From an uncultured Chitinophaga sp. (GTDB taxonomy: Bacteria; Bacteroidota; Bacteroidia; Cytophagales; Cyclobacteriaceae): a stretch of DNA of 64,000 nt. Of the stretch, positions 42,696 to 56,013 are shown piece by piece. The notes beneath the pieces are model-generated. The model was not told the origin of the DNA. It worked only from the letters and a program-made list of their open reading frames with translations, and did no database searches. Position 1 is the stretch's first letter, and each line of letters begins with the position of its first letter. The stretch spans positions 3,901 to 67,900 of the forward strand of contig CBIHOZ010000009.1 of NCBI GenBank assembly GCA_966211525.1. The letters run 5' to 3'. Made by a program: the position numbers and the translations under genes.

Positions 42696-44267
42696 ATGTC
42701 TCTCTTTTACGTCATAGTTATTGCCAGCAGCATTGTGGCAACTATCGTGTTGAGTATTGTTATCGGGTCCATCCTTTCCAGCAAAAAAATGAAAAGGAAT
42801 GTGGAAGACGCAGACGACCGCGCCAAGCTGATCATTAAAGAAGCTGAAATCGCAGCCGAGAATTTGAAGAAGGACAGGATCCTGGAAGCAAAAGAAAAGA
42901 TCCTGAAGATGCGCTCGGAGTTTGAAGAAGAAGCAAACAAGAAGAAGAACGTTATCATCAGCAACGAACAAAAGATCAAGCAGCGCGAGCAAACGCTAAG
43001 CAAGGAAATTGAAAGTTTAAAACGTAAGGAAGGCGAGCTTGACGACATCCGTACTGACCTGGCAGCACAGCTCGAGCATGTTAAGAAACGCAAGGAAGAA
43101 CTTGATAAATTCAACCAGCAGAAAATTCAGGTTCTTGAAAACATCTCCAAGCTTACAGCCGATGAAGCACGCGAGCAACTTATTGCATCGCTGAAAGATG
43201 AAGCACAAACCCGCGCTTCAAGCTATATCAAAGACATTATGGAGCAGGCTAAACTTACTGCTACCAAAGAAGCCAAGAAGATTGTTGTTGAAACCATTCA
43301 GCGCACCGCTACCGAGCATGCTGTTGAAAACTGCGTTTCGATCTTTAACATCGAGAGCGATGATATTAAAGGTAAAGTAATTGGTCGCGAAGGACGAAAT
43401 ATACGCGCCCTTGAAGCAGCAACCGGTGTTGAAATTATAGTAGACGATACTCCGGAAGCCATTATCATTTCAGGTTTCGACCCGGTGCGCAGAGAGATCG
43501 CACGTCTGTCGCTACACCGCCTCGTGCAAGACGGCCGTATACACCCAGCCCGTATCGAAGAGATTGTAGCAAAGACTACCAAGAACATTGAAGATGAAAT
43601 TGTAGAGATCGGTGAGCGCACCGTGATAGATTTAGGTATACATGGTCTTCACCCCGAGCTGGTAAAGATGGTAGGCCGCATGCGCTATCGTTCATCCTAC
43701 GGACAAAACCTGTTGCAGCACTCACGCGAAGTTGCCAACCTCTGCGCTATCATGGCGAGCGAACTTGGCCTCAACGTGAAGCAAGCCAAACGTGCCGGCC
43801 TGTTGCACGATATAGGTAAAGTATGGCCGGAAGAACTCGAGAAGCCACACGCTATAGTAGGTATGGAGCTTGCGCAGAAGTATAAAGAGCACCCGGTAAT
43901 TTGCAACGCTATAGGCGCTCACCACGATGAGATTGAAATGACGAGCATCATCTCTCCTATCGTGCAGGCCTGCGATGCTATAAGCGGTGCACGCCCTGGT
44001 GCAAGACGCGAAGTGATGGAGCAATACATCAAGCGCTTGAAAGAACTCGAAGAACTTGGCTTAAGCTTCGATGGTGTAGAGAAATGCTATGCTATACAAG
44101 CCGGCCGCGAGCTGCGCGTAATAGTAGATGCCGAGAAAGCAACAGACGACCGCGCCAACCAGTTAAGCTTCGACATATCGCAGAAAATTGAACGCGACAT
44201 GCAATATCCCGGACAGGTAAAAGTTACCGTAATCCGCGAGATGCGCAGCGTAGCGTACGCGAAGTAA
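42696..44267 (+). CDS. rny: Ribonuclease Y
   Basis: N-terminal TM and coiled coil, KH domain ([13 protein letters not shown]), HD domain (LLHDIGK). Confidence 0.97.
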
Positions 44268-44293: not shown

Positions 44294-44326
44294 AAAATAA
44301 GCCCCGGTTATCGGGGCTTATTTTTT
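44294..44326 (+). terminator. rny terminator; left boundary of the accessory region
   Basis: AAAATAAGCCCCG-GTTAT-CGGGGCTTATTTT. Confidence 0.85.
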
Positions 44327-44403
44327 ATACTGACTTATGATTTATCTTCCCTAAAAAGATTAATTGATGATATTACATTTCTTTGCATAGAAGATAACTT
44401 TAT

Positions 44404-44634
44404 ATGAAATCACGACTGAATCTTAGCATAGAACAAAATCTTTTAAATCAAATAAAACGATATGCTGACTCTAATCAAGTAAGCATCTCTGAACTTGTTG
44501 AAGAATACTTCAAAAGTGTTATACACCAAAAAACGCTCAACAACATCATCGATCTTGTTGAGAGATTACCGAACCATTCAATTTCTCCTTCGCAGAATTT
44601 GAAAAAAGGGTTCTATGAAGATTACAATAAATGA
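44404..44634 (+). CDS. DUF6364-like ribbon-helix-helix antitoxin, no toxin adjacent
   Basis: MKSRLNLSIEQNLLNQIKRYA...SISELVEEYF is an RHH pattern. Confidence 0.7.
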   Translation: MKSRLNLSIEQNLLNQIKRYADSNQVSISELVEEYFKSVIHQKTLNNIIDLVERLPNHSISPSQNLKKGFYEDYNK

Positions 44635-44652
44635 AATCAGTTATAGGCGGTT

Positions 44653-44826
44653 ATGAATAGAGAAAAAGTGATTGCTGTGCTTCAGGAACTTCCGCAGGAA
44701 TTTAACCTTGAAGAGCTAATAGATAAACTCATCTTTGTAGAAAAAGTAGAGCAAGGATTAAAACAACTCGATCAAGGAGAAAGTGTCCTTCACCAGAATG
44801 TAAAGGACATAATACCGTTGGCATAG
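44653..44826 (+). CDS. Small putative antitoxin (57 aa, not in ORF track)
   Basis: Hand translation MNREKVIAVLQELPQEFNLEELIDKLIFVEKVEQGLKQLDQGESVLHQNVKDIIPLA; resembles small proteins usually found upstream of RelE/ParE toxins. Confidence 0.6.
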   Translation: MNREKVIAVLQELPQEFNLEELIDKLIFVEKVEQGLKQLDQGESVLHQNVKDIIPLA

Positions 44827-44857
44827 AACTATCCGTAACGTATTTACATTGCTTACG

Positions 44858-45169
44858 CTAAGCTTTTTCTCTGTGCCCCTTTGAGCCTCCTTCGAGCCCT
44901 CCGTGCAATTGGATTTCGTTGTCATCATCATCCGCCTCATGCCACCCACGAGTTTCCTTCGCAGCCCTATCCAGCAACTCGAATAGCAGCGTAAGATCAT
45001 CCATCCAACTATCAAACTCTGGCGACAGAAAGTCTTTGTTATGCCCTATATATTCAATCAATAACGTGCGCAGGCACCGGTTAAGCCGCTCCGGCGGAGT
45101 ATATAACATAAAATGGTGAAAGGCCTCCGCCAACCGTTCACTAACAATCCGTTCATCTGTGTGTGACAT
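44858..45169 (-). CDS. Hypothetical protein divergent from XRE regulator
   Basis: 103-aa ORF; acidic C-terminus runs into a CACAGAG-type repeat. Confidence 0.55.
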   Translation of the reverse strand: MSHTDERIVSERLAEAFHHFMLYTPPERLNRCLRTLLIEYIGHNKDFLSPEFDSWMDDLTLLFELLDRAAKETRGWHEADDDDNEIQLHGGLEGGSKGHREKA

Positions 45170-45286
45170 ATAACATTAAGGTTTAATGGCGGCAAATAGC
45201 ACCCCGCTTAAAAAGTACCGCACCACACGACAAAATATATAACGACCTCGAAGGGTTGTTTTTTACCTATCAACTATTTTTTACAT

Positions 45287-45715
45287 TTGAGTATGACAGA
45301 GAAACTTCACATTGGCAGAAAAGTAGCACGCCTGCGCGAGTTACGAGGCATAAAACAAGAAACGTTAGCTGAACAGTTAGGCATTAGCCAACAGGCTGTT
45401 TCCAAGTTAGAGCAAAGTGAGAATATCGAAGATACTACGCTCGATCGCTTAGCAAAAGCATTGGGATTCACCTCGGATGCTATAAAGAACTTCAGCGAAG
45501 AATCTATACTATATAACATTCAGAATAATTACGAAGGTGCTACCAATAACGTTGTACAACAATATCAATGCACCTTCAATCCTCTTGATGAGTATAGGAA
45601 CGAAGTAAAAGAAAACAAACGCCTGAGCGAAGAAAATAAAAAACTATATGAATCTCTTTTGAAAGAGAAAGATGAAAAGATTGCGTTGTTGAAGAAGATG
45701 TTGGAGGGGAAGTAG
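45287..45715 (+). CDS. XRE family HTH transcriptional regulator
   Basis: RELRGIKQETLAEQLGISQQAVSKLE helix-turn-helix with a C-terminal coiled coil. Confidence 0.9.
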   Translation: MSMTEKLHIGRKVARLRELRGIKQETLAEQLGISQQAVSKLEQSENIEDTTLDRLAKALGFTSDAIKNFSEESILYNIQNNYEGATNNVVQQYQCTFNPLDEYRNEVKENKRLSEENKKLYESLLKEKDEKIALLKKMLEGK

Positions 45716-45747
45716 TTTTAAAGTTTAAACCTTACCAAAAGTAAGTC

Positions 45748-46374
45748 GTGATGACAACCTTAAGAGAGTTTGAAAAAGAAATTAGAGAAAGAGAAAAACT
45801 CCTTAAAAACATTCTTTTACACAAAAGGGATTTTGAATTTCTCAATACCCCTGGAACTCCTGAGCTTATTCGTTTTTTAGCAAAGCATCCTTTATTTGGC
45901 AGATCTAAAGATGCAATCTTCAAGCTTTTATGTATTGAAGTGCACAAACTTTTTTCCGATTTAAAATGCGACAAGTTCAAATTAACTCAACTACTAGAAA
46001 AGATTAAGGAAAATAGAAAAAAAGCAGAATGGAGCGACTGTCTCCAAAAACATGATATCGAACACGTAGAGAAGCTAATCACTCGAGGATTAAGAAATGA
46101 AGCTATAGCAGGACTTAGACGTTACAGGAATAAATACCTAGCACATACTGACATAGAAAAAACAGATGCAACATTTTTTTTAAGCCATTTTTACACGCTT
46201 ATCGAGACCGCATTGGAAGTTATCGATTTTTTGAGAAAGAAAGTTCTTAAAGAAGAATTTAACCTTGAACTATACATACCAGCAGATGGATTCGAAGAAT
46301 TTCGAAGTTTGGCAACAACAAATACTCAATCAGGGTCCCTCGTAGTTCCCAAGGCAAGTGACGCTAATACTTAG
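45748..46374 (+). CDS. HEPN-domain protein (AbiU2-like candidate)
   Basis: RNKYLAH matches the HEPN Rx4-6H motif in an all-helical ~200-aa protein. Confidence 0.6.
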   Translation: MMTTLREFEKEIREREKLLKNILLHKRDFEFLNTPGTPELIRFLAKHPLFGRSKDAIFKLLCIEVHKLFSDLKCDKFKLTQLLEKIKENRKKAEWSDCLQKHDIEHVEKLITRGLRNEAIAGLRRYRNKYLAHTDIEKTDATFFLSHFYTLIETALEVIDFLRKKVLKEEFNLELYIPADGFEEFRSLATTNTQSGSLVVPKASDANT

Positions 46375-46568
46375 TCAGTAAACTTTCAATTAATCATACC
46401 TAATCGCCATTTAGCCCCCATCACCCACTACAACTCTCAATAGCAGAATCGTTCAAGTAATTATATCTTAATCTAGCAATTTGTCTATACTATATGTGAC
46501 TAACGATTTTACTAAAAGACAAAGTGTAAATAACATTAAGATGGCCCATTCCTTTTTATCCGTAGAGA

Positions 46569-47006
46569 ATGCCCCACACAGAAAGAACAATCTGTGTAAC
46601 AGATTCTTTCCTCCGTCTCTTTATGTATTTGTTCATTGAAGCTATTAATAAAAGTGGACTAACGCAGAACCAACTTAACATCTATAATCATTATGAATTA
46701 GAGTTAAAGCAAGTGAACACCTCTTTCATTGACTTCAAACTACAGGAAATATATGAAGATACTGAATTAATGAGCTGGTATACTTTGGCTCTCGACACAC
46801 TATCTTCATCACTCGATTCGAATGGAAAGGCTATAGACAACAATTACTTAAATGAGATAAAAGAATTAAAAAAGAACGACAGTAACTACACCAGACCTAT
46901 TGAGATCGGCAAACTTAAAAACTTGATCAATGATTTATACTGGGTTCTTGGTAAAGAAAATATCTATCCGTCTGATGACTTTAAATGGTTCGAAAAACCA
47001 ATATGA
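46569..47006 (+). CDS. Hypothetical protein (immunity-like)
   Basis: 145-aa acidic cytoplasmic ORF; no family recognised. Confidence 0.6.
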   Translation: MPHTERTICVTDSFLRLFMYLFIEAINKSGLTQNQLNIYNHYELELKQVNTSFIDFKLQEIYEDTELMSWYTLALDTLSSSLDSNGKAIDNNYLNEIKELKKNDSNYTRPIEIGKLKNLINDLYWVLGKENIYPSDDFKWFEKPI

Positions 47007-47020
47007 CATTGCTCCTATAC

Positions 47021-47057
47021 GCACCATCACGGTCACTGGCCGCCGGGACTCTGATGC
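47021..47057 (+). repeat. Type-B hairpin repeat, degenerate
   Basis: GCACCATCACGGTCACTGGCCGCCGGGACTCTGATGC, 14 nt after the stop at 47006. Confidence 0.65.
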
Positions 47058-47058
47058 C

Positions 47059-47100
47059 TAGTAGCAGTATCGCTGTTTTGAGAAAGATATAGTTTGTAAT
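47059..47100 (+). repeat. Type-C 42-bp repeat, copy 1 (diverged)
   Basis: TAGTAGCAGTATCGCTGTTTTGAGAAAGATATAGTTTGTAAT aligns with 54132 and 54601. Confidence 0.55.
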
Positions 47101-47137
47101 TTCAACGTACCACGTTAGTAGACACTCCTTCTCCGCA

Positions 47138-47437
47138 ATGAAAAAACTGAAATCAATTTTAGGACTTTTAATAATTGCTTTACTCTCAGCTTCGTGTAAG
47201 AGTTATTACAACGATACAATTGACTGGATGGACAACATCGAATTGGGAACAAGCTTGGAGGACGTCAAGAGAAACCAACCCAACTTTGTTGAGATTGACT
47301 GGAGTAAACCTGACACACTTGATGAAGGATTAAGATTTAGAATTAAAAAAATTAAAGGGAGCAACGACATATTGAACATGAACCACTTTGTGGTGTTCTC
47401 TGACAATAAATATGCGGGACGAGAATCTATTAAATAA
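47138..47437 (+). CDS. Small lipoprotein
   Basis: Lipobox LSASC. Confidence 0.75.
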   Translation: MKKLKSILGLLIIALLSASCKSYYNDTIDWMDNIELGTSLEDVKRNQPNFVEIDWSKPDTLDEGLRFRIKKIKGSNDILNMNHFVVFSDNKYAGRESIK

Positions 47438-47463
47438 GATCATAGCGGCAGACATCAGTTTTT

Positions 47464-47570
47464 AAGTCTCCGAAGAGTCTCCCGCCTCGGGGACTCTTAC
47501 GGGAGCACGCACTTAGCAACAGGCAGCTTTTAAAAAACGCATAGTCCCGAAACGGAGACTATGCTTGGAC
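47464..47570 (+). repeat. Type-A 107-bp double-hairpin element, full copy
   Basis: AAGTCTCCGAAGAGTCTCCCGCCTCGGGGACTC...GCATAGTCCCGAAACGGAGACTATGCTTGGAC. Confidence 0.95.
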
Positions 47571-47661
47571 TGTCTTCTTCCCACGGGCCATAATATATCT
47601 GTCTACAAATGGATATAAACAATGAGATTGATATATTAGAATATTAGCGATAATATTTTAG

Positions 47662-48378
47662 ATGGGAATCTTCGACCTTTTCAAAAACAAGACAGCGGAA
47701 GACTACTTCGGAAAAGTAATCAGTTTTACGCTCGACAATATTAGCAAAGCAGTTTTGAGTAATTGCAAAAACGGTGATTATGTAAATCTTTGGACAAAGT
47801 CGGACATGGATAGAGTAATGATCTACGCACCAAATTCTATTGGTGGGTCTGGGCAATTAGGAGTGGTACCAAGCAAGTATGCTAAAATTATCAAAGCACA
47901 TATTCTTGGACAAAAAGATTATGGGATTTCCGGACCGTCAACAAATAATTATAACGCTTCAATAATAAATATATCTGGGGCAAGTTGTACAATCGGAATC
48001 AAGTTATACTCAACCAAAGAACACGAACGAATTATACAGGAAATGATTAATCGTGACAAGGCTGCAACAAAAGCGGACTTGGAGAAGAAGTATAAAATGA
48101 CCAAGCCTGTGGAAATTAAGTTTAATATAAAGAGAACTGACGTGACGAATTTTGACAACTTGAAACTTAAAGTCTTTGAGAAGGAATTTTATATTGAGTA
48201 TCCATATGACTTTAAACTACAATTAGTCGATGACCACAATCGAATTGTAGCTGAAACGGTTTCGCAGAAGGAAAAAGTAACGAGAATTGTAAAAGGCTTC
48301 TATAACGGACAGAAAATTAGTATCACCAAAATTGAAAAAGAGCGTGACTATCTGAAAACCACAATAAGTGGTGAGTAA
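47662..48378 (+). CDS. Hypothetical protein (possible HIRAN-like N-terminal fold)
   Basis: 238-aa ORF; GDYVNL...VMIY...QLGVVP pattern is reminiscent of HIRAN. Confidence 0.6.
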   Translation: MGIFDLFKNKTAEDYFGKVISFTLDNISKAVLSNCKNGDYVNLWTKSDMDRVMIYAPNSIGGSGQLGVVPSKYAKIIKAHILGQKDYGISGPSTNNYNASIINISGASCTIGIKLYSTKEHERIIQEMINRDKAATKADLEKKYKMTKPVEIKFNIKRTDVTNFDNLKLKVFEKEFYIEYPYDFKLQLVDDHNRIVAETVSQKEKVTRIVKGFYNGQKISITKIEKERDYLKTTISGE

Positions 48379-48474
48379 AAAGAACTACTTAAAATAGATG
48401 AGTACAATCCATATGAATAACAATAACGAAATATATTTTGGAGACAAAAAAAATATATACCCGAGAAGAAACTT

Positions 48475-48526
48475 AAGTCTCCGAAGAGTCTCCCGCCTCG
48501 GGGACTCTGGCGGAAGCACGCACTTA
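48475..48526 (+). repeat. Type-A element, 3'-truncated
   Basis: Identical left hairpin; similarity ends after GCACGCACTTA. Confidence 0.9.
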
Positions 48527-48580
48527 TTAGCACAAATCCTTGTCGTGATGAGTTCTTAAATTTTAATAATTTATACATAC

Positions 48581-48787
48581 ATGGACTATACTGCAATATT
48601 TAAACAAACCTATAATGATTTATTGCCAGACTCCCTGGAGACCGCGCTAATTGCCATGAAGATTGCAGGTGCATCGCAGATAGACAGCATCAGAGTAGTG
48701 ATGTCTGAGCTAAAAATAACTCTTCGGGAAGCGGATGCTTTAATCCTAAATTCCAAGACTTGGGAGGATAAGAAGGAGTTAACTTAG
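48581..48787 (+). CDS. Small hypothetical protein (immunity-like)
   Basis: 68 aa, GASQIDSIRVVMSELKITLREAD...NSKTW. Confidence 0.55.
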   Translation: MDYTAIFKQTYNDLLPDSLETALIAMKIAGASQIDSIRVVMSELKITLREADALILNSKTWEDKKELT

Positions 48788-48850
48788 AAATTAAGGAACG
48801 ACATCGCTGACATATGGAGCGGTCCTGAATAGCAGTATCGATCATAATTA

Positions 48851-48957
48851 AAGTCTCCGAAGAGTCTCCCGCCTCGGGGACTCTGTCGGAAGCACACACT
48901 TAGCAACGGCCAGCTTTTCAAAAACGCATAGTCCCGAAACGGAGACTATGCTTGGGC
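48851..48957 (+). repeat. Type-A element, full copy
   Basis: Both hairpins identical to the 47464 copy. Confidence 0.95.
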
Positions 48958-48997
48958 ACCAACGCTCAATATTTCTTTTTGAAACTTAGAGAGAAAG

Positions 48998-49879
48998 ATG
49001 AAAAAAATCATAATTGCAATTCTTGTTAGTATACTTTTCTCAAGTTGTTTTATTGGTGCAGGTACTCATGGAAAAATAGAAAGTTACCAACTGCCTTATT
49101 CTAATGAACATATTGTTAACGCTGTCGATCAATTTCTTTTAGCTAATCCTTTGTATTTTGAAAGTACTGAAGATAATGGTTGGATTTACATTAAGATACC
49201 TCCAGAGAACAACAGATTCGGATTCACCATTGGAGGTCAATCTGAAATCGTGTTAATAGCGGTAGGCAAAGAAAACGAAACAACTAAATGGAATAAAGAT
49301 CTCTCGTCTTCAGAGAAGAGAACGTTCTCTGAAATCTTCAAAGAGAAATTCGTAAACAAATTACACCCTGCAACTACATCTGAAGATTTACTTAAAAGCC
49401 CCTTTACTCTTACCATTAATAACAATGCGGATGCTGATTTATGGCCAGAGTATATTTTTACATCGGAGACACTAATAAGCTACCCGCTACCTTTTGAATT
49501 TGATAGTTTGAAACTTGATTACTTCGAGGATCTAGTTGTATCCTTTAGCAAACAGATAGGGCGTCAAATACAGGTAAATCAATTTTACAATATTTTCAGG
49601 ATAGACAAAGATTACTCAGGTTACATTGCAGACAGTATTTATATTACCAAGCTGTATCGCACAATAGGATGTAACAAAAAGGCCATAACCATTTTTGATA
49701 ACATTGCATGGGGCCAGTATATAGATGTTAAAAATCAACGTAACAGAATTCAAGACTATAAAAGATTACGCAAACAAAAAACAGAAAGAGGATATAGAGA
49801 AACAGATGTTTACTCTGAATTTTCAGAAGAACGCTGGATGCTGAGTGATAGACATCTAATTCGCAATCAAGATGATTGA
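48998..49879 (+). CDS. Lipoprotein, unknown function
   Basis: Lipobox LFSSC. Confidence 0.75.
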   Translation: MKKIIIAILVSILFSSCFIGAGTHGKIESYQLPYSNEHIVNAVDQFLLANPLYFESTEDNGWIYIKIPPENNRFGFTIGGQSEIVLIAVGKENETTKWNKDLSSSEKRTFSEIFKEKFVNKLHPATTSEDLLKSPFTLTINNNADADLWPEYIFTSETLISYPLPFEFDSLKLDYFEDLVVSFSKQIGRQIQVNQFYNIFRIDKDYSGYIADSIYITKLYRTIGCNKKAITIFDNIAWGQYIDVKNQRNRIQDYKRLRKQKTERGYRETDVYSEFSEERWMLSDRHLIRNQDD

Positions 49880-49888
49880 TGTTCTGAC

Positions 49889-49998
49889 GCACCATCAGAG
49901 TCACCGGGCCCGTCTCGGTGACTCTGGCCGAAGCACGCACTTAGCAACAGGCGCTCTTCAAAAGAAGCATAGTCCCGAAACGGAGACTATGCTTGGAC
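49889..49998 (+). repeat. Hybrid element: type-B left hairpin plus type-A right part
   Basis: GCACCATCAGAGTCACCG...CGGTGACTCT followed by GGCCGAAGCACGCACTTAGCAACAGGC...GCATAGTCCCGAAACGGAGACTATGCTTGGAC. Confidence 0.92.
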
Positions 49999-50224
49999 AG
50001 CAAGTGATTCTAAAGCAATCTTCCCTATTCGTTTTTCAAGCATAAAAAACTTCATTTTATTTTACCCATACGTTAACCATTAACGAGGTATTAATATTTA
50101 CATGTTGATAGTATAAGAGTAATTACCGGTAGAATAATTTGAGCAAAACCTGATTTTCCCGGTATAGTATATCATACATAAATGCGTGTTATTGTGTTCA
50201 ACAAACTAAAATTCGTATTTCTTT

Positions 50225-51400
50225 ATGTTAAAAAAAACTACGCTACCAACACTTTGTCTACTGTTAACATTTGCATTTAGTTGTAACGACCAAAGTGTGA
50301 TTGAACAACATGATACTGTTGTCCCATTCGATCCCAGTACAACTACAACTCTACCGCATGATACAGGTACACCAGCCTATACATTTAAGTTAACAAGCCA
50401 GGCTAGTATATATGCAAATGTAAAAAGTACTTTTTCCAATATAAAAGTTGACTCTGACCTGGTTTCAGTTAACAACGAAGGTGTAAAGATAGCCGACTTT
50501 TCGCGTCTGGATAATATACCCGCTAATCTGGCATTTCTAAAAAATGTAAAAGTTTTTGATGATGAAGCAGGCACAATGCAGGCATTGACAAACGAGGAGT
50601 TTAGACAATTAATGATCAATCAGCTTAACGCTTGCGAATTTTCCGATGCGTTCAAGCAAATATTTATAGACTTCTACGATTACATCAAAAACACGATGCC
50701 TACTAAATCTTATGAATCTTTTAACATAAAATGCAATAGTTTTATGGAAAGGGTAGCTATAGGCGCTTCCGCATCAAAATATACGGAACTGGAAAAATTT
50801 GCAGTTGTTCAGGTCTTTGCTCAGTTAAGACAACTGGTAAAGTATACCTACGAAAATCCAAGCTCAGCATGGAATAACACAGCAAATGGACGTAGCAGCT
50901 CTGGTGGTTGTTTGCCTAAGACAAAAGATGAGTGGAAGGCCATTGCGGAGGCTGCATTTACAGGTGGAGTGATGGCAGGTGTTAGCTTAGGAATCAAAGG
51001 CATCGAAGCCGGTGCTATAGCAACCACTGCTGCCGGTAATCCTGTTGCCGGGGGCGTTGTAGGTGGGATAATTGGCTTTACAATTGGCTTTACCAGTGGT
51101 GCAATTGGCAGTGGCAGTGTAAAACTAATGTTTGATTGCTTATGGAAAAAAGCCGCCAGCTTAAATGTGCCATTAACAACTTTTGTTTGTAGCGGAAAGG
51201 TATATCAAGCTTACACCAATTCAATTCCAACTGGATGTGAAGCTGGAGGAAATAGCATTATCACACAACAGCCTTATCAAGATCATGTTAAACGAATGCT
51301 AAAAGGAATTTTTGAGTTAGGTGTTGTACCGAACGCAGGCAAACAAAAGATTAATGTTAATGTGGAGAATGACATTAAATTTGTAGTATCAAACTTATGA
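50225..51400 (+). CDS. Lipoprotein with glycine-zipper hydrophobic segment (candidate antibacterial pre-pro-toxin)
   Basis: Lipobox FAFSC (Cys20); NGR at residues 221-223; GxxxG-rich stretch at about residues 247-297. Confidence 0.6.
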   Translation: MLKKTTLPTLCLLLTFAFSCNDQSVIEQHDTVVPFDPSTTTTLPHDTGTPAYTFKLTSQASIYANVKSTFSNIKVDSDLVSVNNEGVKIADFSRLDNIPANLAFLKNVKVFDDEAGTMQALTNEEFRQLMINQLNACEFSDAFKQIFIDFYDYIKNTMPTKSYESFNIKCNSFMERVAIGASASKYTELEKFAVVQVFAQLRQLVKYTYENPSSAWNNTANGRSSSGGCLPKTKDEWKAIAEAAFTGGVMAGVSLGIKGIEAGAIATTAAGNPVAGGVVGGIIGFTIGFTSGAIGSGSVKLMFDCLWKKAASLNVPLTTFVCSGKVYQAYTNSIPTGCEAGGNSIITQQPYQDHVKRMLKGIFELGVVPNAGKQKINVNVENDIKFVVSNL

Positions 51401-51642
51401 AACGTGTAATTAGCTTTTTAGGATACTTCGTTTTCTTCTTGGTATCCTTGTACGCATTAAGTCATGTTAGATTTTTTTCTACAACTGCAATGAACATGTC
51501 AGAAACAAAAAATATAGCGTGGCTTATAACCACCTCATTTGTATTGAGCTTGGGTTATACATTGACTAGCGAGAGGATAAAAAGATTCATTGGCAATACA
51601 ACAAAAAAAATAGTAGACAAAAAGAAGCATGATCCGAACTGA
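51397..51642 (+). CDS. Two-TM small membrane protein (candidate immunity)
   Basis: ATGA overlap with the upstream gene; two hydrophobic helices and a basic tail. Confidence 0.6.
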   Translation: MKRVISFLGYFVFFLVSLYALSHVRFFSTTAMNMSETKNIAWLITTSFVLSLGYTLTSERIKRFIGNTTKKIVDKKKHDPN

Positions 51643-51655
51643 GTATCAGACCTGA

Positions 51656-51683
51656 CTCCATCAGAGTCACCGGCCGGTGACTC
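51656..51683 (+). repeat. Type-B hairpin
   Basis: CTCCATCAGAGTCACCGGCCGGTGACTC, 13 nt after the stop. Confidence 0.85.
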
Positions 51684-51744
51684 CTTAAGCCTGCCCCAAA
51701 GACACCCAATCTCCATTTCAAAAGTTGAGATAATATTTTAAATT

Positions 51745-51851
51745 AAGTCTCCGAAGAGTCTCCCGCCTCGGGGACTCTTGCGGAAGCACACACTTAGCAA
51801 CAGGCGTTTTTCAAAACACGCATAGTCCCGAAACGGAGACTATGCTTCGAC
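51745..51851 (+). repeat. Type-A element, full copy
   Basis: Both hairpins identical to the consensus. Confidence 0.95.
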
Positions 51852-51889
51852 TGTCATAATCCTTAAATTGTAATTTGATTTTGCCAAAG

Positions 51890-52066
51890 ATGAGAAAAGA
51901 GATTGTGACTGATTCAACTCCAAAACCAGATGAGTCCTCAAAAGAGGATATCATTGAAAGACTGATAATAATTGAGAAAATAAAGAAAGGCCGGCAGCAA
52001 ATAAAAGAAGGTAATGTTAATACTGAAGACCAGGCAAGGGTAAAGCTAGATAAATGGTTACGTTGA
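51890..52066 (+). CDS. Small putative antitoxin, orphan
   Basis: MRKEIV...EDIIERLIIIEKIKKGRQQIKEG...KLDKW; same family pattern as 44653-44826 (LI..EK...G..Q...G). Start placed at ATG 51890. Confidence 0.55.
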   Translation: MRKEIVTDSTPKPDESSKEDIIERLIIIEKIKKGRQQIKEGNVNTEDQARVKLDKWLR

Positions 52067-52097
52067 TTTTCCTTCTAACACAGTGGCATCAAATTTT

Positions 52098-52565
52098 GTG
52101 AAACACATCTCCTATCTATACTTACTTATACTGGTAAGCTGTACCACGACCACATCATCTCTTCAAGAAGAAGAGAAAAAACTTGTCGGAAACTGGAAGG
52201 AGCCAGTAGATAATGGAGCGATACAAGGGTCGTATATGGAGTTCCATGAAGACCGCACTGGTGTTTTCGGACCAATCATTAATGTTAAGGGCAAAGTCGG
52301 AATTGCACCCTACTTGTCGTTCCTAATGAAAGACTGGCGAATACAAAACGACACACTTTCTATTCAATTCGAAATGCAGCCGGGTTACGCGGTCTATAGC
52401 CCCGATGGAAAGAAAATCAGAAAAAACGATAAGCCCAGTTATGTCCGCTATATTGTTTGGGAGGTGTCCGACACAGTGATTGTCCTGGAAGATCTCGTTA
52501 GTGAATTTCCAGGCATAAAGGAACGTCTGAAAAAGTCGGAGAAAATGGAACTTTTGAATGAGTAA
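52098..52565 (+). CDS. Lipoprotein (lipocalin-like candidate)
   Basis: Lipobox ILVSC; LVGNWKE motif; GTG start at 52098 (52083 also possible). Confidence 0.65.
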   Translation: MKHISYLYLLILVSCTTTTSSLQEEEKKLVGNWKEPVDNGAIQGSYMEFHEDRTGVFGPIINVKGKVGIAPYLSFLMKDWRIQNDTLSIQFEMQPGYAVYSPDGKKIRKNDKPSYVRYIVWEVSDTVIVLEDLVSEFPGIKERLKKSEKMELLNE

Positions 52566-52572
52566 ATTGCAT

Positions 52573-52589
52573 CTCCATCAGAGTTACCG
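52573..52589 (+). repeat. Type-B hairpin, left arm only
   Basis: CTCCATCAGAGTTACCG, 7 nt after the stop. Confidence 0.65.
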
Positions 52590-52670
52590 TCCGCTATATT
52601 TTAACTTGTTCCGTATGCAAACCCATATATATACTAATGATATTTCTATATTAGGGCAAGCCCGCAGGCA

Positions 52671-53189
52671 ATGAACAACATCAGAAAAGTACTTAGAGCA
52701 AAGCACTGGCAAATTTTTTCAATTTTGATGGGTATCTCATTTATTCAGGGATCGAGTCAAGGGTCCAGTAGTGGGATAAGCACCATCTTCTATATTCTGT
52801 ACATCGTTATTTATATTGGCTGGCTTTTAGTGCTAGGCATGGGATTAAAATCCATGCGACTGAATGTCGCGATGAATTATGCGCTCTTTTTAGCAACAGG
52901 GATTGCGCTTATTACGGTGGTCGTTTCTGTTAAAATTTTAGAAACAATGGGGTTGCTGAACAACTTCGAAAATGATGCAATAGCAATACCAATGCTGGTA
53001 CTCATACTTACTTCGTTAATCATAGTTTGCAGTTTCATTGCAAAGAACTTAAAAATAAATGAAAAGGGAGAGGACATTGATATTAATGATTACTTCGGAG
53101 ACATTCTCCGCTTGATATTCTGGCCTATAGGTATATGGAGTATTCAGCCTCGCATAAATAGATTAGCGGCCAAGTTGATCAGTCACTAA
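52671..53189 (+). CDS. Four-TM membrane protein
   Basis: Hydrophobic segments; C-terminal FWPIGIWSIQPRIN. Confidence 0.75.
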   Translation: MNNIRKVLRAKHWQIFSILMGISFIQGSSQGSSSGISTIFYILYIVIYIGWLLVLGMGLKSMRLNVAMNYALFLATGIALITVVVSVKILETMGLLNNFENDAIAIPMLVLILTSLIIVCSFIAKNLKINEKGEDIDINDYFGDILRLIFWPIGIWSIQPRINRLAAKLISH

Positions 53190-53221
53190 CTGGGCTATAA
53201 TGCATCATTTGCCTTTGCTAC

Positions 53222-53246
53222 CCTATCAGAGTCACCGATCCTCTGA
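53222..53246 (+). repeat. Type-B hairpin, internally deleted
   Basis: CCTATCAGAGTCACCGATCCTCTGA. Confidence 0.65.
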
Positions 53247-53315
53247 ATTGAAATAAGAAGGACTTATAGAATGGAGTATAGCAAAAATCACATTTAAAGC
53301 GAAACAATTTTAACT

Positions 53316-53489
53316 ATGAAACAATCAATACTCTATATTGTGCTTGGCGCCTTAATCATCATTGGTGGATTGCGTCAAAATGAACACAGATTAATTCCAG
53401 AGTTTCTGTACTATATATTCGGGGGTATATCACTGATCTTTGGAATATATAAATTATTAACTAACGAGCCTGACGACAAGCAGCAATAA
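53316..53489 (+). CDS. 57-aa two-TM membrane protein (not in ORF track)
   Basis: Hand translation MKQSILYIVLGALIIIGGLRQNEHRLIPEFLYYIFGGISLIFGIYKLLTNEPDDKQQ; the TAA stop overlaps the next repeat. Confidence 0.6.
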   Translation: MKQSILYIVLGALIIIGGLRQNEHRLIPEFLYYIFGGISLIFGIYKLLTNEPDDKQQ

Positions 53490-53595
53490 GTCTCCGAAGA
53501 GTCTTCCGCCTCGGGGACTCTAGCAGAAGCACACACTTAGCAACAGGCAGCTTTTCAAAAAACGTATAGTCCCGAAACGGAGACTATGCTTCGAC
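53488..53595 (+). repeat. Type-A element, full copy
   Basis: One substitution in each hairpin relative to the other copies. Confidence 0.95.
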
Positions 53596-53665
53596 TTTAG
53601 CAACATTCCGTGTAATAGGCGACCTACATCGTTATACACAAAAAAACATTTTAGACTTCTGAACC

Positions 53666-54127
53666 TTGACAACAATACATCTCGTAACCGAAATAGAAGC
53701 CGATATATATACCTGTTTTGACGCAGCGCGTGATATTGACATTCACAAGCTCTCAACAAAACAAACAAACGAAATTGCCATTGCCGGTCGCACAAGCGGG
53801 CTTTGCGAATTAGGTGACATGATAACATGGGAAGCAACACACTTCGGAATAAGACAACAATTAACCGTTGAGATTACCAAGTTCAACCGACCTTACTTCT
53901 TTGAAGATAAAATGCTGAAAGGCGCCTTTAAAAGTATGCAGCACAAACATTACTTCGAAGAGAAAGACGGCAAAACCATAATGATCGATAAATTCGAATA
54001 TGAAGTTCCGTATAGTATAGCAGGTAAAATCTTCAATACTATAATTTTAAAGCGCTACATGACTTCGTTTCTCGTAACCCGAAATCAGTTTATCAAATCC
54101 GTTGTAGAAGCGAAACGAGCACATTGA
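53666..54127 (+). CDS. SRPBCC family protein
   Basis: FDAARDIDIH, WEATHFGIRQ, GAFKSMQHKHYF; TTG start. Confidence 0.8.
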   Translation: MTTIHLVTEIEADIYTCFDAARDIDIHKLSTKQTNEIAIAGRTSGLCELGDMITWEATHFGIRQQLTVEITKFNRPYFFEDKMLKGAFKSMQHKHYFEEKDGKTIMIDKFEYEVPYSIAGKIFNTIILKRYMTSFLVTRNQFIKSVVEAKRAH

Positions 54128-54131
54128 TGCT

Positions 54132-54173
54132 TAATAGCAAAAATCACTATCTTGATAAGATATAGTTCATAAC
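54132..54173 (+). repeat. Type-C repeat, copy 2
   Basis: TAATAGCAAAAATCACTATCTTGATAAGATATAGTTCATAAC, 4 nt after the stop. Confidence 0.75.
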
Positions 54174-54182
54174 ACGTAACAA

Positions 54183-54596
54183 ATGAAAAGACCTCAAGAC
54201 TTCTTTACAATCTATAAGCAATCGGCATGGGATAAGGACACCGAAGGCATGATTGCATTGTACCATGACAGCGTTGTGATTTTTGACATGTGGACGAAAG
54301 GGTATCAAACAGGACTTACAGAATGGTCTAGCGTAATCAAAAATTGGTTAGGCTCATTAAGAGACGAAAGTGTAAATGTGATCTTTGAAATGATAGAACT
54401 TCACGAAGGTAACGATGCCGGGTTTGGAAGTGCTTTAATTACTTATCAAGCCATTTCAACGAACAACACAATTGTAAGAAGCATGAAAAACAGAATTACC
54501 GTAGGGTTTATCAAACAGAAAGATGAGTGGAGAGTAATTCATCAACACACATCTGCTCCTATCAACTCCAACCTTGAAGCTATTTTGAATATCTGA
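54183..54596 (+). CDS. SnoaL/NTF2-like (YybH-type) protein
   Basis: IALYHDSVVIFD, WRVIHQHTSAP. Confidence 0.8.
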   Translation: MKRPQDFFTIYKQSAWDKDTEGMIALYHDSVVIFDMWTKGYQTGLTEWSSVIKNWLGSLRDESVNVIFEMIELHEGNDAGFGSALITYQAISTNNTIVRSMKNRITVGFIKQKDEWRVIHQHTSAPINSNLEAILNI

Positions 54597-54600
54597 TATT

Positions 54601-54641
54601 TAGTAACAAAATCATTATCTTGAAAAAATATAGTCTATAAC
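54601..54641 (+). repeat. Type-C repeat, copy 3
   Basis: TAGTAACAAAATCATTATCTTGAAAAAATATAGTCTATAAC, 4 nt after the stop. Confidence 0.75.
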
Positions 54642-54692
54642 CTCAGCCACCCCAGCATAAAAATTTTTGACAGTTGGTTTAAAACAAAAGTT

Positions 54693-55256
54693 ATGAGAAA
54701 ACTAGTTGCATCAATCAACATGACGCTCGATGGGTTTTGTGATCACACATCTGCAATTGCCGATGACGAACTACATCAACACTATACCGACCTGTTATTT
54801 AACGCGGGCGACCTTCTGTACGGAAGAATAACATACCAGCTCATGGAAGACTACTGGCCAACGGTAGTTAAAAATCCCACCGGCAATAAACGCACGGACG
54901 ACTTCGCTGTGATCATAGAAAACATTCCCAAAACTGTTTTCTCCCGAACGCTGAGTAATGTAAAATGGAAAAATGTAAAACTTGCCAAGAGAAGTCTTGA
55001 AGAAGAAGTTTTAGAACTCAAGCAATCGAACGATCATGGAGGTAAAGACATTTTAGTGGGCAGTCCGAGTTTAATTGCAGCGCTGACAAAACTTAATCTG
55101 TTTGATGAATACCAACTCTGCGTTCACCCGATTATAGCGGGACAAGGTTTAACATTGTTTAAAAATATAACCGACAGCATGGTTCTTAAACTTGTAAAGA
55201 CAAAAACACTTGGTGGTGGCCAAATAGTACTTTACTATGAGCCAGTGAAAAAATGA
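54693..55256 (+). CDS. Dihydrofolate reductase family (RibD C-terminal-like) protein
   Basis: NMTLDGF, LYGRITYQLM, DEYQLCVHPIIAG.G. Confidence 0.88.
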   Translation: MRKLVASINMTLDGFCDHTSAIADDELHQHYTDLLFNAGDLLYGRITYQLMEDYWPTVVKNPTGNKRTDDFAVIIENIPKTVFSRTLSNVKWKNVKLAKRSLEEEVLELKQSNDHGGKDILVGSPSLIAALTKLNLFDEYQLCVHPIIAGQGLTLFKNITDSMVLKLVKTKTLGGGQIVLYYEPVKK

Positions 55257-55410
55257 TTAGTCTTCTTTTATTCTCATCGTAACATAAGCAAAGTATATTC
55301 TTCGATTTAAGAATTAGATTTATCGATCCTGCTACCAAACATCAGAATTCAGGAGACCGATGACTCTAATGGGGTATCTAGATATATACTCCTACTCAAA
55401 TGCAATTGAT

Positions 55411-56013
55411 ATGTATAAAAAAATCCCTATAGCGTTAATAACATTCCGACTAGTTATTGTTCCAGTAATTTTAGGGCTAACCTATTATCTCAGAGATGAA
55501 GCACGGTCAATAGTACTTGTCCTAATGTACCTGGGTTTGATATCCGACATACTTGATGGAATTGTTGCCAGACATTTGAATGTTTCGTCTCCAGCCTTGA
55601 GGCGTTTCGATAGTCAGACTGATATGTTATTCTGGCTGTCTATAGGAGTAAGCACCTGGCTACTACATCCAGATCTTATTGCGAATAATAATATAGCAGT
55701 AATTACAATTCTTGCCATGGAAGTGATCTGCTATATGGTGAGCCTGCTAAAATTTAAAAGGGAAACCTGCACACACGCATTTCTCTCAAAGCTCTGGGGA
55801 ATAACACTGCTTATCGCTTTTACTTCTTTGATTGGATTTGACTATGCAGGCCTCCCTTTTGCAATAGCGATTACTGTGGGATTAGTTGCGCACATTGACA
55901 GAATACTGATCACGCTGGTCCTCCCGGCATGGACACATGATATACCAAGTGCTTATCACGCTTATCTTATCAGGAAAGGGATTCCGTTTAAAAAGAATAA
56001 ATTATTCAATTAA
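55411..56013 (+). CDS. CDP-alcohol phosphatidyltransferase family protein
   Basis: SDILDGIVAR...RRFDSQTD motif; start placed at ATG 55411. Confidence 0.85.
   Translation: MYKKIPIALITFRLVIVPVILGLTYYLRDEARSIVLVLMYLGLISDILDGIVARHLNVSSPALRRFDSQTDMLFWLSIGVSTWLLHPDLIANNNIAVITILAMEVICYMVSLLKFKRETCTHAFLSKLWGITLLIAFTSLIGFDYAGLPFAIAITVGLVAHIDRILITLVLPAWTHDIPSAYHAYLIRKGIPFKKNKLFN

Follow-up and report, generated by a model that had tools for sequence, protein, structure and literature searches.

The DNA analysed here is a 64,000-nt contig stretch (the window) from the genome of an Ohtaekwangia, a soil Bacteroidota, and its positions 50225-51642 hold a lipoprotein gene directly followed by a gene for a small membrane protein with two transmembrane (TM) helices. 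We conclude that the lipoprotein and the small membrane protein constitute a real, conserved and hitherto undescribed two-gene family of the Bacteroidota. The best reading of the pair, drawn from sequence and falling a little short of an even chance in our judgement, is that the lipoprotein is a lipid-anchored bacteriocin acting on membranes and that the small protein confers immunity to it in the inner membrane. With that same degree of reserve, the points in its favour are the conserved partner, the rarity and patchiness of the pair, the mobility of the unit, the pattern of decay, purifying selection, the predicted structure, the export signal and the precedents.

The lipoprotein open reading frame (ORF) occupies positions 50225-51400 of the plus strand, to which the small gene and the coordinates of the flanking repeats also refer, and encodes 391 amino acids. 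It begins with a signal peptide and lipobox (residues 1-20; 50225..50284), in which MLKKTTLPTLCLLLTFAFS, ending in FAFS, precedes an invariant, lipidated C20. The variable N-terminal part (residues 21-216; 50285..50872), delimited by the family alignment and an AlphaFold2 (AF2) model, starts with a Pro/Thr-rich tether at residues 21-49, predicted by AF2 to be disordered together with residues 18-20 (disorder spanning 18-49). Apart from an invariant Glu190 within an ExEKF motif, the N-terminal ~200 residues are poorly conserved in the family alignment. A flexible linker (residues 217-228; 50873..50908), whose length and sequence vary and whose predicted local distance difference test score (pLDDT) is below 50, includes N221-G222-R223 and places N221-G222-R223-S224-S225-S226 directly ahead of Cys229.

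The linker is followed by the most characteristic part of the protein, a conserved glycine-zipper helical hairpin (residues 229-305; 50909..51139) that is defined by the alignment and modelled by AF2 with a pLDDT of ~90. From its N-terminal end it consists of Cys229, W237, an amphipathic helix at 236-266 with G248xxxG252xxxG256, a G271-N-P273 turn, a second helix at 273-302 with the five-fold zipper G276xxxG280xxxG284xxxG288xxxG292 as well as F285 and F289, and finally Cys305. Glycine makes up 21% of residues 229-305 vs 3% of residues 21-228. The hairpin holds eight GxxxG motifs (starting at residues 248, 252, 259, 276, 277, 280, 284 and 288), a count reached only 14 times when its 77 residues were shuffled 10,000 times, and it contributes the longest uncharged run of the lipoprotein (262-299, 38 aa). 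Among 19 relatives with 23-84% identity the key zipper glycines are invariant or nearly so, and the zipper is therefore a selected feature and not an accident of composition. The remaining residues 306-391 and the stop codon (51140..51400) form a C-terminal subdomain that is likewise conserved in the alignment; its elements, according to the AF2 model and the alignment, are a beta-hairpin bearing Cys322 (which is invariant), Cys338, a VPNxG motif at 368-372, and two helices. The sequence features listed by the first-pass annotation of this DNA, i.e., the Cys20 lipobox, NGR-SSS, the GxxxG spacing, the ATGA overlap of the two genes and the surrounding repeats, were all found in place. When compared with an 84%-identical metagenomic copy, the ratio of nonsynonymous to synonymous substitution rates (dN/dS) was 0.085 for the lipoprotein gene and 0.115 for the small gene, indicating that both ORFs are functional coding genes under purifying selection.

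To model the lipoprotein, AF2 was run with a 5-sequence alignment, which gave an unusable model (pLDDT 42), and with a 19-sequence alignment, which gave the model used here (mean pLDDT 74.9, predicted template modelling score (pTM) 0.78). The latter shows a small alpha/beta element (59-119), four helices (123-210), the disordered linker (217-228), the hairpin (H236-266/H273-302), a short helix (H304-312), a beta-hairpin (318-329) and two terminal helices. The linker is the sole long disordered internal segment with a pLDDT below 50. Because of the high pTM, the N- and C-terminal parts are predicted to pack as one mostly helical body, which probably keeps the hydrophobic hairpin covered while the protein is soluble. 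In the model, Cys229 and Cys305 lie at the two feet of the hairpin and could form a disulfide staple. The first-pass annotation had proposed an N-terminal domain of ~200 aa; the disordered linker does part such a region from the zipper, but with one compact fold a pro-domain is not obviously separable. Foldseek returned nothing significant against the PDB (best E 0.49, TM-score ~0.1) or against BFVD (best E 0.26), and the rows for AhlB and SmhB in its output were dismissed as noise (probability 0.03 or less).

The second gene of the pair (51397-51642) encodes an 81-aa two-TM protein predicted to reside in the inner membrane. Its ATG overlaps the stop codon of the lipoprotein gene as ATGA, an arrangement by which the small gene is, as far as sequence can tell, translationally coupled to the lipoprotein gene. 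The protein has hydrophobic stretches at residues ~5-24 and ~40-56, basic termini, a net charge of +8 and no lipobox; in order, it consists of MKR, TM1, a loop, TM2 and a basic amphipathic tail (RIKRFIGNTTKKIVDKKK). The basic ends and the positive-inside rule point to an N-in/C-in inner-membrane hairpin with both termini in the cytoplasm. We regard the 81-aa protein as a candidate immunity protein.

At each of the 13 distinct loci for which DNA or gene calls were readable, the lipoprotein gene has a homologous small two-TM gene 0-64 nt 3' of it on the same strand, which bears out the earlier expectation that homologues keep the small TM neighbour; none of these loci lacked the downstream gene. 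The partners are of 77 aa in L001, 64 aa in L002 and L018, 67 aa in L003, L004, L007, L013 and L014, 73 aa in L015, 94 aa in L016, 81 aa in L006, 110 aa in the P0005 contig, 60 aa in the P0012 contig and 75 aa in L028, the last from a different class-level lineage, and the two genes overlap in L001, L013/L014, L015 and L006. By the called coordinates, the 4-nt overlap is ATGA in the window, L001, L013 and L015. Loci L022 and L024 were found starting from the small protein. The two-TM layout was judged on the small proteins that were read, namely nine aligned ones, those of L022-L024 and that of L028; they share the two TM helices, the layout and a C-terminal motif, (R/K)FIGNTxK(K/R)IxDK, which reads ERIKRFIGNTTKKIVDKKK in the window and FFRKFIGNTVKRIFDKEPK in L013. 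The small-protein family comprises 18 clusters, a rarity close to that of the lipoprotein family, and each of its members with readable context adjoins an upstream lipoprotein homologue. With a partner in every locus, similar rarity and no extra copy in the own genome, the two genes are coupled throughout the family as a conserved pair that co-evolves. The L028 locus (L028:773-3077), from a distant Bacteroidota genome (G756), has a 304-aa lipoprotein gene and the 75-aa two-TM gene, followed by a gene for a 209-aa multi-TM protein; its lipoprotein gene is preceded by a divergent XRE-type regulator, and the module may exist here in an enlarged version.

An exhaustive hidden Markov model search of 1.84 billion cluster representatives resulted in a lipoprotein family of 34 clusters, while a word-index search of 5.8 billion proteins gave four relatives only. 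A third word-index search, with distant members as the query, gave five proteins and was dominated by low-complexity candidates. Neither of the two proteins nor any of the 19 family members had a match above threshold in Pfam, NCBIfam, PADLOC or PHROG, and a sequence-profile search of the PDB gave no match for the lipoprotein. The full-length family members are all lipoproteins, with the lipid Cys invariant in 19 out of 19 aligned sequences. In 20 out of 20 members this Cys is followed by a polar residue and then by one to three acidic residues, never by a basic one. The lipoprotein surface-export signal of Bacteroidota is SDDDD, SDDFE or QKDDE, with a polar or basic residue and two acidic residues as the minimum (PMC5080379), and the post-Cys pattern of the family resembles it at the sequence level. 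In the window lipoprotein, Cys20 is followed by NDQSVIE, which is polar and then acidic without a basic residue and has a weak likeness to the signal.

The pair is enclosed by repeats. Upstream of it, a hybrid hairpin repeat similar to repetitive extragenic palindromic (REP) elements (49887..49996; repeat families D1/D2/D3) is followed by an AT-rich leader or promoter region of 228 nt (49997..50224) that is nearly identical in Ohtaekwangia kribbensis and moves together with the cassette. Downstream, 14 nt past the stop codon of the small gene, lies a type-B GC-rich hairpin (GAGTCACCGG/CCGGTGACTC; 51656..51684), which is likely a terminator, and a type-A double-hairpin repeat of 127 nt (51723..51849) stands between the pair and the next cassette. 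O. kribbensis CCUG 58938 has the same two-gene unit with 97% nucleotide identity. The homology between the window and the O. kribbensis locus (L006) begins at ~49918 within the hybrid repeat and stops at ~51676 within the type-B hairpin; outside these limits the neighbouring genes differ, and both copies are situated in one variable island upstream of shared SnoaL and RibD_C genes. As the homology is confined to ~49918-51676 and the flanks differ, the pair constitutes a 1.76-kb cassette with REP-like hairpin seams, and the locus shows REP-type hairpins as seams for the exchange of two-gene cassettes between closely related genomes. An integron attC reading of the flanking repeats was dropped in favour of REP-like hairpins; no integrase was found in the window.

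The island starts after rny (RNase Y, 42696-44267) and spans 44300-56000 of the window. It is composed of small, mostly orphan plus-strand genes separated by two kinds of hairpin repeat, and its lipoprotein genes, besides the one described here, include those at 47138-47437, 48998-49879 and 52083-52565. In O. kribbensis, other cassettes are present between the same flanks (in the window SnoaL at 54183-54596 and RibD_C at 54693-55256). In a metagenome contig (L022:354-2103), the small gene of which is 91% identical to that of the window, an IS3-family transposase gene (HTH_Tnp_1 + rve) is located 350 nt 3' of the small gene.

The cassette was found in two of the 20 Ohtaekwangia species genomes and in none of five other genera of the host's family. 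In a set of 401 genomes from the order, only the own genome matched strongly, next to four marginal partial matches (E 8e-7 to 6e-4), and two out of 401 genomes sampled across the phylum carry the cassette (~0.5% of the sampled Bacteroidota). No copy was detected in 72,556 plasmids by tblastn and no match in 50,697 phage records, a result that speaks against a role like that of TraT or one in phage lysis. The module is an accessory cassette, rare and patchily distributed, that resides in variable islands.

Two of the copies have a broken lipoprotein gene next to an intact small gene. In O. kribbensis (L006:2202-3418; L025/L026) a 1-nt deletion after codon ~36 breaks the lipoprotein gene in two, a 69-aa ORF with the signal peptide and lipobox and a 336-aa ORF with the body. 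The 81-aa partner is intact and starts at an upstream ATG, since 1 nt is also missing from the A-run that follows the start codon used in the window. In L023 (L023:369-1275), from a farmland/grassland metagenome, the lipoprotein gene lacks its first ~150 codons and thereby the signal peptide and lipobox, while the small gene of 64 aa is intact; either the copy has decayed or the contig is a chimera of the assembly.

If the pair is a bacteriocin with its immunity protein, it could work as follows. The lipoprotein would be exported by Sec, signal peptidase II (SPII) and Lol to the outer membrane, and the acidic residues after the lipid Cys would direct it to the cell surface or to vesicles. The amphipathic helices would cover the hydrophobic hairpin, so that the producer carries the lipoprotein in soluble form. 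Contact with a related cell would expose the hairpin, perhaps via a cut in linker 217-228, and the hairpin would then enter the target membrane, oligomerise by its glycine zippers and dissipate the membrane barrier. In the inner membrane of the producer, the 81-aa partner would neutralise incoming or mis-inserted hairpins by helix-helix binding.

The first-pass annotation had gone further in one respect and proposed a surface pre-pro-toxin released by cleavage after R223. Maturation by an Arg-specific protease at this site, in the manner of BcpT with C11 proteases, seems unlikely from the sequences, although they agree with it in part. BcpT activity does need cleavage after Arg (PMC9308784), R223 falls within the only long disordered internal segment (217-228), and an Arg is found at most ten residues before the conserved Cys in 13 out of 25 members vs 5.9 expected (p ~0.002, ignoring relatedness), mostly as G-R. 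On the other hand, the remaining 12 members are without Arg there and have Ser/Gly/Thr linkers instead, the lipoprotein has no LTR motif, no C11 peptidase of the fragipain or doripain type was found in the own genome, and the N- and C-terminal parts are predicted to pack as one fold. What stands of the proposal is a disordered linker enriched in Arg; R223 itself is not conserved and the protease is missing from the genome. Processing somewhere in linker 217-228 is possible.

Several observations weigh against the bacteriocin reading as such. No likeness in sequence or fold to any known toxin or immunity family was found in the libraries, the PDB or BFVD, and neither gene shows diversifying selection by dN/dS in the comparison with the 84%-identical metagenomic copy. 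Genuine bacteriocins commonly have immunity genes that were acquired or occur as orphans; here, orphan copies of the small gene were found neither in the own genome nor among the contexts read. The window lipoprotein has one acidic residue only at +2 to +6 after the Cys, and its surface exposure is for this reason plausible yet uncertain. The two cases of a broken lipoprotein gene with an intact partner are anecdotal and could be due to sequencing or assembly errors. Finally, glycine-zipper lipoproteins may be benign stabilisers of the outer membrane, as exemplified by SlyB and YfgH (bioRxiv 10.64898/2025.12.22.696046).

The last point gives rise to another explanation, in which the lipoprotein is an envelope protein similar to SlyB, YfgH or TraT and its hairpin oligomer anchors in the own outer membrane, serving stress stabilisation or surface exclusion. 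We consider this rather unlikely, and equally so that the small inner-membrane protein is an assembly or regulatory partner instead of an immunity protein. A lipoprotein with a glycine-zipper hairpin is the general design of SlyB and YfgH (bioRxiv 10.64898/2025.12.22.696046), and they share with the protein described here a membrane-capable zipper hairpin that can drive oligomerisation. Three family members have weak, sub-threshold TraT matches over the hairpin (best E 0.15). AF2 models a single compact fold and not a pro-domain with a toxin, and the PDB profile search and Foldseek revealed no homology to any toxin. However, PF05433 was matched by none of the 19 members and PF13488 by one (E 5.9), and the TraT family (PF05818) reached 8.7 bits in one scored match vs a cut-off of 31 bits. 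The helices are also much longer than in SlyB and YfgH (~30 residues each), the flanking domains are different and there are four conserved Cys. While SlyB-type genes are widespread core stress genes, the lipoprotein family has the narrow distribution described above (2/20 congeneric species, ~0.5% of the sampled Bacteroidota), lies in a hairpin-bounded cassette and is found broken with its partner intact; the lack of a plasmid match argues against TraT-like exclusion in particular. SlyB, YfgH and TraT are not known to have an obligatory partner in the inner membrane that is coupled to them in translation.

Phage defence or superinfection exclusion appears more remote still. Here the surface lipoprotein would sense or block phages, or the small protein would restrain a membrane-disrupting abortive-infection effector. 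This explanation rests only on the neighbourhood, since its support comes from genes of the island: at the island head, an XRE-family helix-turn-helix gene is followed by a gene for a HEPN/AbiU2 protein (PF18734, E 3e-9; 45287-46374), and a 172-aa multi-TM protein (52671-53189) has weak PADLOC matches to '2TM effector' (E 0.005) and PycTM (E 0.015). The 172-aa protein may be a defence-type membrane effector, or the matches may be noise. Rarity, patchy distribution and carriage in cassettes are traits of defence genes as well. Against this, neither protein of the pair has a PADLOC or PHROG match, the 50,697 phage records contain no match, and the 13 loci share no conserved partner of the sensor or nuclease type. 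Abortive-infection effectors normally act from the cytoplasmic side, and an exported lipoprotein would be an unusual site for one.

Should the bacteriocin reading be right, the pair would add to bacterial warfare a protein fold and a logic of delivery that are both new, in which the lipoprotein route replaces a dedicated secretion system and a membrane hairpin is concealed within a soluble fold. The known bacteriocins of Bacteroidota, which are few and come from gut Bacteroidales, would be extended to soil Cytophagales. More tentatively, the family might be one branch of an undescribed class of Bacteroidota weapons against other bacteria that do without a secretion machine of their own, i.e., lipid-anchored, self-shielded alpha-helical membrane toxins with a disulfide-stapled zipper hairpin, delivered as lipoproteins by surface export or vesicles, with co-evolving two-TM immunity proteins and exchanged among genomes in REP-hairpin cassettes. 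For glycine-zipper lipoproteins, a membrane toxin and a membrane stabiliser are currently indistinguishable by sequence, and the module, with two genes in 1.4 kb, is small and makes an easy test case.

Among known systems, BcpT/BcpI of Phocaeicola vulgatus and P. dorei (PMC9308784) is similar in architecture. BcpT is a 499-aa SPII lipoprotein toxin that binds the lipid A-core and is activated by cleavage at two LTR motifs, after R65 and R199; its N-terminal 18-199 fragment masks the toxic C-terminal fragment, its immunity protein BcpI is a 57-aa lipoprotein encoded just downstream, and its killing mechanism is stated to be unknown (PMC9308784). Both systems have an SPII lipoprotein of several hundred residues with a very small gene directly downstream, and both are patchily distributed, BcpT on a mobile element (a plasmid) and the present pair as a cassette. 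The N-terminal ~200 residues of BcpT act as an intramolecular chaperone or inhibitor of the C-terminal active part. The differences are that BcpT has two LTR cleavage sites and is activated by C11 proteases, whereas the lipoprotein described here is without LTR and its host without a C11 protease, and that the partner here, an 81-aa two-TM protein, has no lipobox, in contrast to the lipoprotein BcpI. The statement of the first-pass annotation that glycine zippers occur in BcpT finds no backing in the BcpT paper, where the term does not appear (PMC9308784). No relation to BcpT was detected, in that the plasmid tblastn was empty and the family matches included no named relative, the BcpT sequence itself not having been compared directly and the presence of pBCPT among the plasmids not having been verified; by analogy of layout, BcpT is an architectural analogue only.

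The Cdz system of Caulobacter offers a likeness of another kind. CdzC and CdzD are proteins of 84-86 aa that act in a contact-dependent manner, leave the cell by dedicated type I export and form SDS-resistant aggregates, and the immunity protein CdzI is a small three-TM protein without homologues (PMC5380434). Extended GxxxG zippers are common to both systems, forming in Cdz the hydrophobic core of a surface-retained antibacterial protein, and so is a small multi-pass membrane partner, with three TM helices in CdzI and two in the candidate immunity protein here. In contrast to Cdz, the zipper described here is a hairpin within a 391-aa Sec/SPII lipoprotein, and neither the cassette nor any of the 13 related loci contains genes for the ATP-binding cassette and membrane fusion proteins (ABC/MFP) of a type I secretion system. 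Colicin immunity proteins are small inner-membrane proteins as well. With the pore-forming colicins and alpha-pore-forming toxins (colicin A/E1; ClyA/AhlB) the lipoprotein would share the principle of a ~40-residue uncharged hairpin held soluble in an amphipathic bundle; it differs from them in having no fold match, in being lipid-anchored and in lacking recognisable receptor or translocation domains. The module is like BcpT/BcpI and Cdz in outline and a member of neither.

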